Virus record (IMG/VR): IMGVR_UViG_2718218136_000001
Strand: one strand, 5' to 3'
DNA length: 64,000 nucleotides
Source of the DNA: a virus
Lineage: Duplodnaviria > Heunggongvirae > Uroviricota > Caudoviricetes
This document shows positions 5,161-6,158 of the stretch, piece by piece. The notes below the pieces were generated by a model. It was given only the letters and a program-made list of their open reading frames with translations. It was not told where the DNA came from and did no database searches. The number at the start of each line of letters is the position of its first letter. Position 1 is the first letter of the stretch. A program made the position numbers and the translations under genes.

Positions 5161-6158
5161 AGATTGCTTTAGTTTTTCGCTCTGGTGGTGACTATAACGC
5201 TTCCGATGTGCAGTGGCTGGTTAATCAACTGCCAAAAGGCTATGAAATTATTTGCCTGACAGACCTGAAGCGTTTACATGTACCTGGCGTCAAAGTTGTC
5301 CCATTGATCAACCAGTGGCAAAAGTGCCGTGGCTGGTGGGCGAAAATCGAGTTGTTCCGACCGGATATAACCGATGATCTGTTCTATCTGGATTTGGACA
5401 CGGTTATTGCCGGTGATATACGCCCAATCCTAGAGCATCCACCAACCAGCTTCACCATGCTTAGGGATTTTTACCATCCACAATATCGTGGCAGCGGTGC
5501 CCTGTGGATACCAAATAGTGTTAAAGCGCATATCTGGAGTTCATTCTGGCAAGATCCGGAAGGTTGGATTTCTCGTTGTGTCACTACTGAGTGCTGGGGT
5601 GACCAGGGGTTCTTACGAAAGGTTATGGGCGATGATACACCAGCATTTCAGGATCTGTATCCAGGATGGTTTGTAAGTTACAAGGCCGATGTTGTGGAAC
5701 CTGGTTCAAAATATGCGAGCGCGCGTTACTCCAGGGGGAATGGGGCATTACCAAAAGACTGCCGAATAATCTTTTTCCACGGCAAACCGCGACCTCGCGA
5801 AGTGTCAGAGGATTGGCTTCCCCTTATCAGCTCATTTTTTGAGCGAGAATCAGAATATTATTGCTCTAATAATTCCGTATTTTTAAAACGTGATGTACAC
5901 TCATCACGTTTTTTATTAGAGCAATCTACAAGGTGCACTATGTGGCCATTCCGACGGAAATATCACTACTGGCTGATCGCCTTTGTTACGCCGACCGGCG
6001 GTATCAGGCATGTCATCACCAGGTATCGCAACAAGAGACTCACCTTAGCCAGAATTTTACAGGCTGCCATAGGTGAGGGACTGGATACAAATTGCGTAGT
6101 CCTTCCTCCTTCATACTTAGGAAAAATGACCGAAGCACAAGCTAATACGGAACTTTGA
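5157..6158 (+). CDS. Putative DXD-motif glycosyltransferase-like protein; C-terminal boundary uncertain
   Basis: 333-aa ORF; YLDLDTV motif and RIIFFHGKP near residue 210; an operator pair and hairpin (5860-5925) lie inside the 3' third, whose translation looks non-protein-like. Confidence 0.4.
5860..5876 (+). promoter_or_regulatory. C1-operator-like site (attgctctaataattcc)
   Basis: 15/17 match to consensus; paired with an inverted copy at 5909-5925. Confidence 0.5.
5885..5912. terminator. Perfect 11-bp stem-loop (aaaacgtgatg / catcacgtttt) followed by a T-run
   Basis: Read directly; lies between the two inverted operator-like sites. Confidence 0.4.
5909..5925 (-). promoter_or_regulatory. 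C1-operator-like site, reverse orientation (ttttttattagagcaat)
   Basis: Reverse complement matches ATTGCTCTAATAAAAAA. Confidence 0.5.

Follow-up and report, generated by a model that had tools for sequence, protein, structure and literature searches.

The inverted pair of C1 operators at 5860–5925, together with the hairpin that it encloses, very probably forms the pmgQ–pmgR intergenic control region of a P1-like phage-plasmid, and its apparent position inside a coding region would be an accident of one allele. The operators appear intragenic because a single substitution, A5858T, has destroyed the stop codon of pmgQ in this isolate. The window (the whole 64,000-nucleotide stretch analyzed here) is, judged by its sequence, a P1/P7-like phage-plasmid: in the pmgQ–pmgR region it is 99.0–99.7% identical to P1, P7 and SJ46, and in a 161-nt alignment it differs from P1 and P7 only at positions 5858 and 5877. 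Its closest record, plasmid pCRST032_1, has 5858 as the single difference across 5700–6100. The gene for the cognate binding protein, c1, is intact within the window, on the same element as the operators (Table 1).

Both sites correspond, base for base, to already annotated C1 operators of P1, and the annotated operators of P1 and of P7 lie at orthologous positions and have the same sequence as those of the window. In P1, the pair and the promoter PpmgR are found at the same place between pmgQ and pmgR (AF234172, 82152–82217); the two 17-bp sites, the hairpin and the T run are identical to those of the window, and orientation, spacing and downstream genes are the same. P7 has an identical sequence and layout under renamed genes, with Op(sht a) and Op(sht b) at the sht operon, shtA/shtB (AF503408, 84533–84598). 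Compared with P1, the window carries A5858T, 2 nt 5′ of OpmgRa, and A5877G, 1 nt 3′ of OpmgRa, the operators themselves being untouched; compared with P7, it carries the same two substitutions. The 17-bp C1 consensus that we re-derived from 11 annotated P1 sites, ATTGCTCTAATAAATTT, equals the pattern used in the search. Each operator agrees with it at 14 of 17 positions, with a perfect match at positions 1–13 and all mismatches in the degenerate 3′ end, and the initial 13 nt of OpmgRa and OpmgRb form a perfect inverted repeat. With up to three mismatches allowed, the window contains 16 matches to the consensus, against 0.36 expected, a number reached in none of 100 shuffles. Moreover, the initial 15 nt of OpmgRa and TTTTTTATTAGAGCAA within OpmgRb are invariant in the diverged relatives described below. 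The same asymmetric 17-bp recognition sequence is found in other C1 operators of P1, monovalent ones such as Op88 and Op94 and bivalent, overlapping pairs such as Oc1ab, and both Op88 and Op94 start, as OpmgRa does, immediately past the stop codon that ends the preceding gene. The two monovalent sites of the window differ from these other operators, however, in that they face each other 32 bp apart, do not overlap and enclose a hairpin; no other inverted C1 pair so separated was found between 72000 and 94800 of the P1 record. Thus, the original prediction of inverted C1-operator-like sites around a perfect 11-bp stem with a T run is borne out by sequence, consensus and folding. The operators, their position and the promoter are already known from the annotation of P1 and P7, and the hairpin is the one detail that goes beyond it.

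Table 1. Features of the pmgQ–pmgR–pmgS region and the c1 gene, in window coordinates
Feature	Coordinates	Strand	Sequence or basis
pmgQ proper (hdmD in P7), 233 codons	5157–5855	+	PHROG label glycosyltransferase
Lost pmgQ stop codon (A5858T), TAT here and TAA in relatives	5856–5858	+	Alignment with P1 and P7
Linker of 28 codons (residues 234–261), the translated pmgQ–pmgR intergenic spacer	5856–5939	+	
C1 operator OpmgRa (former Op86a; Op(sht a) in P7)	5860–5876	+	ATTGCTCTAATAATTCC; protein_bind in AF234172 and AF503408
Predicted σ70 promoter PpmgR (−35 TTGCTC, 5861–5866; −10 TAAAAC, 5884–5889)	5861–5889	+	P1 GenBank annotation
Hairpin with perfect 11-bp stem and 6-nt loop TACACT	5885–5912	+	5885–5895 AAAACGTGATG with 5902–5912 CATCACGTTTT
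Loop hexamer TACACT, candidate alternative −10 of the pmgR promoter	5896–5901	+	
T6 run after the core stem, overlapping OpmgRb	5909–5914	+	Sequence
C1 operator OpmgRb (former Op86b; Op(sht b) in P7)	5909–5925	−	ATTGCTCTAATAAAAAA; annotated in AF234172 and AF503408
Shine–Dalgarno-like AAGGTG, 4 nt 5′ of the pmgR start codon	5930–5935	+	Sequence
pmgR (shtA in P7), 72 aa, contained in the 3′ part of the 333-aa ORF	5940–6158	+	
pmgS (shtB in P7), 420 aa, second gene of the operon	6160–7422	+	99.3% identical to P1 PmgS; phrog_1660
Terminator-like hairpin 3′ of pmgS (11-bp stem, 7442–7452/7460–7470, then T run)	7442–7475	+	
c1 repressor gene, cognate binding protein	21366–22214	−	tblastn, 98.9% identity over 283 of 283 residues of P1 C1

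The 333-aa ORF (5157–6158) does read through this structure, as had been predicted, and the ORF finder reports it as a fusion because the spacer has no in-frame stop codon and is in phase with pmgR. Two profiles divide the product. The first, phrog_1962, matches residues 1–233 (230 of the 230 positions of the profile), a segment which is 97.9% identical to PmgQ of P1, and phrog_3177 matches residues 262–333 over the full profile (72 of 72 positions), a segment which is 100% identical to PmgR of P1. The last 72 codons are therefore a real gene and not noise. In the profile search, residues 234–261 had no family match. Hence, the earlier suspicion that the last ~90 codons are not protein-like was right for the 28 codons of the linker, but not for the final 72, which are conserved pmgR. 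It was likewise right that the gene is really shorter, since pmgQ ends at codon 233, the point at which the annotated pmgQ/hdmD ends in P1, P7, SJ46 and Ro157c2YLVW; the long ORF, however, results from a substitution that turned the stop codon TAA into TAT, and not from a frameshift or a wrongly called end. Homology stops at residue 233 and restarts at residue 262, rather than continuing through to residue 333, which is the outcome that the shorter-gene alternative had called for. We also considered the ORF as a real long gene and rejected it, because its homologues do not share its full length and its end: in the 90%-identity cluster (2479 members), the members examined are otherwise of 233 or 230 aa, barring shorter or partial entries.

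An error of sequencing or assembly at 5858, with TAA in the true genome, is very improbable. A single base is changed in an A/T-rich stretch, and T5858, like an identical copy of 5700–6100, is absent from the 681 plasmid and 675 E. coli RefSeq records; T5858 is also absent from 181 of the 184 copies that we collected. Nevertheless, three Logan contigs from independent assemblies encode exactly the same 333-aa protein, and one of them is identical to the window at 7001 of 7002 positions; a substitution, unlike a homopolymer indel, is atypical as an error of current platforms. Moreover, the stop codon was lost independently, from TAA to TTA, in a lineage (L127) that is 97.9% identical, which shows that such alleles are tolerated. 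The A5858T allele is real.

To regard the 333-aa ORF as a real, selected PmgQ–PmgR fusion, with the operator pair and hairpin regulating it from within the gene, possibly through an internal promoter for a short isoform, seems to us extremely far-fetched. In favour of such a fusion, the spacer leaves the frame open, all P1-type copies have pmgQ and pmgR in phase, the stop codon was lost twice and the allele persists in several assemblies. Yet TAA is kept, 0–1 base 5′ of OpmgRa, in 181 of the 184 oriented related copies, and two of the three copies without it carry the same allele. In addition, the 81-nt spacer is open in frame by chance in about 15% of shuffles, and in the diverged lineages the spacer differs in length and carries an in-frame TAG or TAA. 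The linker, besides lacking a family match, has a sequence dictated by the operators and the hairpin. Since pmgQ is dispensable (PMC10695390), loss of its stop codon is expected to be nearly neutral, and by a rough estimate a 3-nt codon hit twice is near what neutrality predicts, given the number of singleton changes in the spacer. The idea of an intragenic element regulating a genuine 333-aa protein finds no support.

We therefore return to the intergenic reading and to the promoter within it. The original prediction placed here a C1-controlled promoter for the downstream 420-aa gene; operators and a predicted promoter flanked by them are indeed annotated in P1 and P7, but the first gene served is pmgR, which is essential in P1 (PMC9024508), and pmgS follows. 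As annotated, PpmgR (TTGCTC-17-TAAAAC) is a prediction in the P1 record. Its −10 hexamer ends in C instead of the usual T, and it has G at the second position in Cronobacter phage JK004 and its relative L158 and in five P1-like copies. A consensus scan found no promoter on the + strand, the annotated PpmgR included; the sole promoter-like match of the scan in the region is weak and on the minus strand, from 5886 to 5857. The hexamer in the hairpin loop is an alternative −10 candidate, and its pattern TAnnnT is kept in all lineages (as TACACT, TATCAT or TACGCT). A late, Lpa-dependent promoter of P1 was considered and set aside, as nothing upstream of either −10 candidate resembles the −22 box; the boxes used for comparison were those of LPpmgL, LPhot, LPpac and LP26 in the P1 record, with a GTnACTT-like core 4–9 nt 5′ of the −10 hexamer. 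Published P1 transcriptomes give expression at the level of genes and no transcript ends. Downstream, all lineages have a purine-rich block where the window has the Shine–Dalgarno-like sequence. In a lysogen, C1 made from the c1 gene of the window would be expected to occupy both of the inverted monovalent operators that bracket the promoter of the pmgR–pmgS operon and to block RNA polymerase, OpmgRa overlapping the −35 region and OpmgRb probably lying at or just past the transcription start.

The hairpin between the operators has a 7-bp core with four G–C pairs, followed by T6-A-TT. Its folding energy is −13.0 to −13.4 kcal/mol (z −5.0 to −6.3), and the whole palindrome, 5860–5925, forms 24 pairs at −26.9 kcal/mol (z −7.2). 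A stable stem–loop with a U-rich tract directly 3′ is what defines an intrinsic terminator at the level of sequence, and the hairpin has both, with only four G–C pairs in the stem. It was not called by a generic terminator scan, in our reading because the stem, when extended through its A–U base, leaves too few T residues in the tail window. Searches of 5600–6200 against Rfam, on both strands and at E ≤ 1, gave no match. In the GenBank record of P1 this interval is without a terminator, and the hairpin is unannotated in the records of both P1 and P7.

Diverged relatives were found by tblastn against phages (JK004), by blastn in distant mode against plasmids, and by pattern scans anchored on the operators; the scan of IMG/VR for variants of the hairpin used a pattern anchored on the operators only. 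The architecture is kept in JK004, whose PmgS is 69.5% identical, and in Salmonella plasmids, and there the operator cores have remained unchanged amid diverged flanking coding DNA. In these diverged lineages the hairpin folds equally well, at −14 kcal/mol, and over all lineages the range is −13 to −14 kcal/mol. Two of the 11 pairs of the stem show compensatory changes, six of the 11 vary through G·U only, and 98.5% of the cells in the alignment remain paired. Variants of the stem are more often the more stable as + strand RNA (12 cases) than as − strand RNA (four cases); the hairpin of JK004, for example, folds at −13.5 kcal/mol as + strand RNA and at −5.8 kcal/mol as − strand RNA. The T6 run is invariant, except for T7 in three copies. 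A strand-biased mutation spectrum could be a partial cause of the excess of changes of the G·U type. Single substitutions seen in very close relatives disrupt the core stem roughly as frequently as they leave it intact, so that structural support comes from three or four deeper lineages. We thus have moderate confidence that the hairpin has been maintained in evolution, as the covariation indicates, the number of independent lineages sampled being small.

That diverged P1-like phages keep the hairpin by compensatory changes suggests a functional RNA element, probably a terminator, that overlaps a promoter. The hairpin fits a terminator acting in + strand RNA for the upstream operon. It resembles intrinsic terminators, for example the one that follows pmgS, in having a stem–loop and then a T run at the end of an operon. 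Its fold, however, is the less stable of the two (−13 versus −18 kcal/mol), it is superimposed on a promoter and a repressor site, and its role in termination is putative. We tentatively propose, as a possibility to which we give rather less than even weight, that the 66-bp palindrome is a single unit in which a functional, maintained terminator overlaps the C1-controlled pmgR promoter, and that it would insulate pmgR–pmgS from the upstream late operon and at the same time put it under the control of the repressor.

The hairpin may alternatively be an element acting at the level of DNA or of the promoter and not a terminator: a palindrome that positions the operators for cooperativity or looping, a loop that holds the true −10 sequence, or a structure in the 5′-UTR of pmgR. 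We consider this unlikely, although several observations speak for it, namely the conservation of TAnnnT across all lineages, uncommon in a free loop, the poor conservation of the annotated −10, the failure of the generic scan to call the hairpin, the A/U-rich base of the stem, and the extension of the palindrome by the operator cores to its full 24 pairs and −26.9 kcal/mol. If the −10 sequence were in the loop (TACACT or TATCAT), both arms of the stem would be promoter spacer and discriminator DNA. However, the two fully compensatory changes keep the pairing and not the sequence, which would be unexpected for the spacer DNA of a promoter; the one-sided changes are of the G·U type and pair in + strand RNA only, as the two energies for JK004 illustrate; and the invariant T6 lies directly 3′ of the stem. 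Moreover, with the −10 in the loop, PpmgR transcripts would be made without the hairpin, and a constraint at the level of RNA would have to come from upstream transcripts. A −10 in the loop and a terminator are thus compatible and do not exclude each other.

On the terminator reading, the hairpin and T6 would most likely serve as an intrinsic terminator, or as a stabilizer of 3′ ends, for transcripts of the upstream pmgL–pmgQ operon. Transcripts from PpmgR would begin inside or after the hairpin and, without its 5′ arm, would escape termination. Stop-loss alleles such as A5858T would then send ribosomes into the terminator, with non-stop pmgQ messages, reduced termination or a PmgQ–PmgR fusion as the possible outcomes. 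Loss of a stop codon just 5′ of a probable transcript 3′ end should yield non-stop messages, which are handled by tmRNA-mediated trans-translation. By likeness to such non-stop alleles, we infer that on terminated transcripts PmgQ would lack a stop codon and become tmRNA-tagged. Unlike those alleles, the window still offers an in-frame stop codon 300 nt further on, that of pmgR, for transcripts that read through, and these may yield some PmgQ–PmgR fusion protein. Synthesis of PmgR and PmgS would go on as normal, with a promoter, Shine–Dalgarno sequence and AUG of their own.

The main value of these observations is for annotation. In this genome and in the few assemblies with the same allele, the 333-aa call hides the essential pmgR and puts within a coding region a promoter already known as repressor-controlled; the annotation should give pmgR as a gene of its own and pmgQ as a stop-loss variant. 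The conservation in diverged P1-like phages of a hairpin between the operators is a small addition to the biology of P1, and the understanding of P1 immunity is unchanged.

As for the genes around the control region, Pfam and NCBIfam have no family for PmgQ or PmgR, and a search of genome contigs with PmgS as a single protein returned two near-identical loci only. The hairpin 3′ of pmgS folds at −18.1 kcal/mol (z −5.6) and closes the pmgR–pmgS unit. In every lineage pmgR is a separate ORF of 72 aa, and the differences in pmgR between lineages are in excess at third codon positions.

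The inverted sites flanking the hairpin are the annotated C1 operators Op86a and Op86b, and both they and the hairpin lie where the original prediction had placed them. At the orthologous position, the P1 record (AF234172) lists a "monovalent C1-controlled operator OpmgRa" (formerly Op86a; operator a) controlling the expression of pmgR and pmgS, with OpmgRb (formerly Op86b; operator b) on the other strand, both between pmgQ and pmgR; in the P7 record the same two sites precede shtA and shtB and are named Op(sht a) and Op(sht b). Over their first 13 nt the operators form a perfect inverted repeat. 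A C1 consensus rebuilt from 11 operators annotated in the P1 GenBank record equals the pattern searched, ATTGCTCTAATAAATTT, which is matched 16 times in the whole window at up to three mismatches (0.36 expected). Over 5100-6300 the window shares 99.0-99.7% identity with phages P1, P7, SJ46 and relatives, and a 161-nt alignment to P1 and P7 reveals differences only at 5858 and 5877, leaving operators and hairpin unaffected. The window has an intact c1, the gene of the cognate repressor, and coi, lpa, pacA, pacB and all neighbouring pmg genes are intact too. Since the P1 and P7 records already annotate the operators, their control over pmgR-pmgS and where the genes begin and end, the feature itself is known; what goes beyond these records is covariation support for the nested hairpin, annotated by neither in the interval, and a rare stop-loss allele that fuses the pmgQ and pmgR frames. 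The C1-operator-like sites, strongly enriched in the window, include those at 2236, 8001, 16335, 19641, 22309, 22773, 22856, 58631 and 60289, with further ones at 24417, 24894, 27126 and 35231; several start right after an upstream stop codon (Op86a after pmgQ, Op88 after pap, Op94 after pdcB).

Features of the pmgQ-pmgS interval and of other loci in the window
Feature	Position	Strand	Remarks
Operator a	5860-5876	+	ATTGCTCTAATAATTCC
Hairpin 5' arm	5885-5895	+	AAAACGTGATG; perfect 11-bp stem between the operators
Hairpin loop	5896-5901	+	TACACT, 6 nt
Hairpin 3' arm	5902-5912	+	CATCACGTTTT; pairs perfectly with the 5' arm
T6 run	5909-5914	+
Operator b	5909-5925	-	ATTGCTCTAATAAAAAA on the minus strand
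Strong canonical terminator-like hairpin directly after pmgS	7442-7475 (stem 7442-7470)	+	AATGCTGGTGG, 7-nt loop, CCACCAGCATT, T run; -18.1 kcal/mol
Small ORF, hydrophobic 28-aa peptide	8102-8188	+	MNTAFKIIMTAIYFWLFSITFGGIVAHG; AGGAG upstream; in the spacer between Op88 and hsdR
HsdR, 1038 aa	8268-11384	-	Type I locus
411-aa ORF	11506-12741	-	Type I locus
520-aa ORF	12738-14300	-	Type I locus
c1, intact	21366-22214	-	98.9% identity over 283 aa

In P1, P7, SJ46 and Ro157c2YLVW, pmgQ (hdmD) has 233 codons and its TAA lies one base before operator a. As read from the DNA, the 333-aa ORF (5157-6158), which does run through the operators and the hairpin, is PmgQ 1-233 joined by 28 translated spacer codons to PmgR 1-72, because TAT replaces TAA in the window (A5858T), the 81-nt spacer has no stop in the pmgQ frame (about 15% of spacer shuffles are open by chance) and the pmgR start at 5940 is in phase. 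Residues 1-233 match PHROG 1962 ("glycosyltransferase"; profile coverage 230/230) and residues 262-333 match PHROG 3177 (72/72). The last ~90 codons had been regarded as non-protein-like, which holds for 28 of them only, residues 234-261 having no match in the PHROG search; the remainder is pmgR, a real gene. PmgR is 100% identical to its P1 counterpart and is a separate 72-aa ORF in each diverged lineage, where the differences fall mostly at the third codon position (17/9/29, 16/9/41 and 16/11/38). The proposal of a shorter gene followed by a C1-controlled intergenic region was thus essentially correct, save that the tail of the ORF is itself a gene, and it is a substitution, not the suggested frameshift, that produces the long ORF. 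The mis-annotation as a 333-aa gene results from this stop-loss allele.

No identical copy of 5700-6100 turned up among 681 plasmid records, where the best reached 99.5%, or among 675 E. coli RefSeq records, where it reached 99.8%; over this interval the best record, pCRST032_1, differs solely by an A at 5858. Operator-anchored pattern scans of IMG/VR and metagenomes, together with loci from phage, plasmid and genome records, gave 184 oriented copies, 181 of which keep the TAA. The other three are the window, a contig of the Logan assembly collection with the same allele, and L127 (IMGVR_UViG_2778261417_000008), a contig with an independent TAA to TTA change (~6190-6200) and from a lineage that shares 97.9% identity with the window across 9.2 kb; the stop loss in L127 likewise fuses the two ORFs. 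Three Logan assemblies have a gene call for precisely the 333-aa protein of the window, and one of the three agrees with the window in 7001 of 7002 bases. These counts establish A5858T as a genuine but rare allele. The 90%-identity cluster of the 333-aa protein has 2479 members; the ones examined have a length of 233 or 230 aa, bar two that are shorter or partial. Two hits in three bases are, by a rough estimate, close to the neutral expectation for the spacer given its many singletons, and the simplest reading is that of a nearly neutral mutation. A deletion survey and a CRISPRi screen have found pmgQ dispensable for lytic growth (table in PMC10695390).

The order of elements (stop codon, operator a, 12-nt T-rich spacer, 11-bp hairpin with a 6-nt loop, T6, operator b, Shine-Dalgarno, pmgR) is conserved in Cronobacter phage JK004 (PmgS identity 69.5%), Salmonella P1-like plasmids and the IMG/VR contig L116. 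Across these diverged relatives ATTGCTCTAATAATT and TTTTTTATTAGAGCAA are invariant, the adjoining ends of pmgQ and pmgR fall to ~70-75% identity or less, and the stem varies by lineage, its arms reading AAAACGTGATG/CATCACGTTTT in P1, AAAACATGGTG/CACCATGTTTT in Salmonella and GAAGCATGGTG/CGCCATGTTTT in JK004. Every lineage folds the hairpin at -13 to -14 kcal/mol (-13.0 to -13.4 in the window, z = -5.0 to -6.3 against dinucleotide shuffles); the whole operator-to-operator palindrome reaches -26.9 kcal/mol (z = -7.2). When the 11 pairs were counted over 12 distinct sequences, representing few deep lineages, two had changed on both sides (G-C to A-U and A-U to G-C), six varied on one side, each time to G·U, and 98.5% of cells were paired. 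G·U pairs form in plus-strand RNA only. The JK004 hairpin folds at -13.5 kcal/mol on the plus strand versus -5.8 on the minus strand, and 12 of 22 distinct variants are stabler by at least 1 kcal/mol as plus-strand RNA, against four as minus-strand RNA. Comparison across lineages shows a structural constraint on the hairpin, acting on the coding strand. The surplus of G·U changes may owe something to a mutation spectrum with a strand bias, and in close relatives singletons that disrupt the core stem are about as frequent as those that preserve it. The operators themselves make up an outer 13-bp stem, which is invariant and therefore uninformative on RNA structure. The operator/hairpin region matched no Rfam family. 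Among ~180 relatives, in which the operators are invariant, the bases between operator b and the Shine-Dalgarno (5926-5931) vary far more than any others in the spacer (CTACAA, ATACAA, CTATAA, CCATAA, CCAAAA, TTACAA and others).

In a lysogen, C1 bound to both operators would block the pmgR-pmgS promoter; upon derepression the two genes would be transcribed up to the hairpin past pmgS, which carries no annotation in the examined stretch of the P1 record. The P1 record gives pmgL-pmgQ as an operon with a late promoter, LPpmgL, and C1-controlled sigma-70 promoters, and the nested hairpin with its T6 may terminate or stabilise the transcripts of this operon. Transcripts from PpmgR would escape termination because they are expected to start within or after the hairpin. 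With one hairpin on either side, pmgR-pmgS appears to be a discrete transcription unit. Exactly which promoter is used is uncertain. PpmgR is a predicted sigma-70 promoter in the P1 record (-35 TTGCTC, -10 TAAAAC); the last base of this -10 is C, and G takes the second position in JK004, in its relative L158 and in five P1-like copies. The loop hexamer, kept everywhere as TAnnnT (TACACT, TATCAT, TACGCT), is an alternative -10 candidate, with which operator a would cover the -35 and operator b would coincide with the transcription start. A generic scan supports neither -10. A late promoter of the Lpa type was also considered at pmgR, and no -22 box was found. The A to G change at 5877 relative to P1 and P7, 1 nt past operator a, lies in the spacer if the annotated promoter is the true one and in the -35 if the alternative is, and is shared with plasmid pCRST032_1 (NZ_AP045803) and IMG/VR contig L019. 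On the minus strand, A5858T changes AATATT to AATAAT, and a consensus scan gives a weak antisense promoter-like match overlapping operator a (5857-5886; TTAAAA, 18-nt spacer, AATAAT), probably meaningless.

On terminated pmgQ transcripts carrying the allele, ribosomes would meet a 3' end lacking a stop codon, making these non-stop messages. Such messages would be expected to undergo tmRNA rescue, with degradation of PmgQ. Possibly, termination at the hairpin weakens as ribosomes run in, and a fusion protein of ~37 kDa would come from transcripts that read through. In any event, pmgR retains its own promoter, Shine-Dalgarno (AAGGTG, 5930-5935) and AUG, and the phage is probably unaffected. PmgR is needed for infectious particles, knockouts accumulating unjoined heads and tails (PMC9024508).

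Further downstream, GC-rich inverted repeats (~8053-8075 and 8221-8250) flank the 28-aa ORF, whose product has no NCBIfam match and could be a small membrane peptide or toxin, or nothing. The type I restriction-modification locus (8268-14300, minus strand) lies between Op88 (8001-8017) and phd (14477) and replaces P1 pmgT through humD. The P1 record notes a resemblance between P1 DNA at the two junctions and the sequences flanking the EcoDXXI and R124 hsd loci, which suggests that P1 carries the scars of such an hsd cassette.
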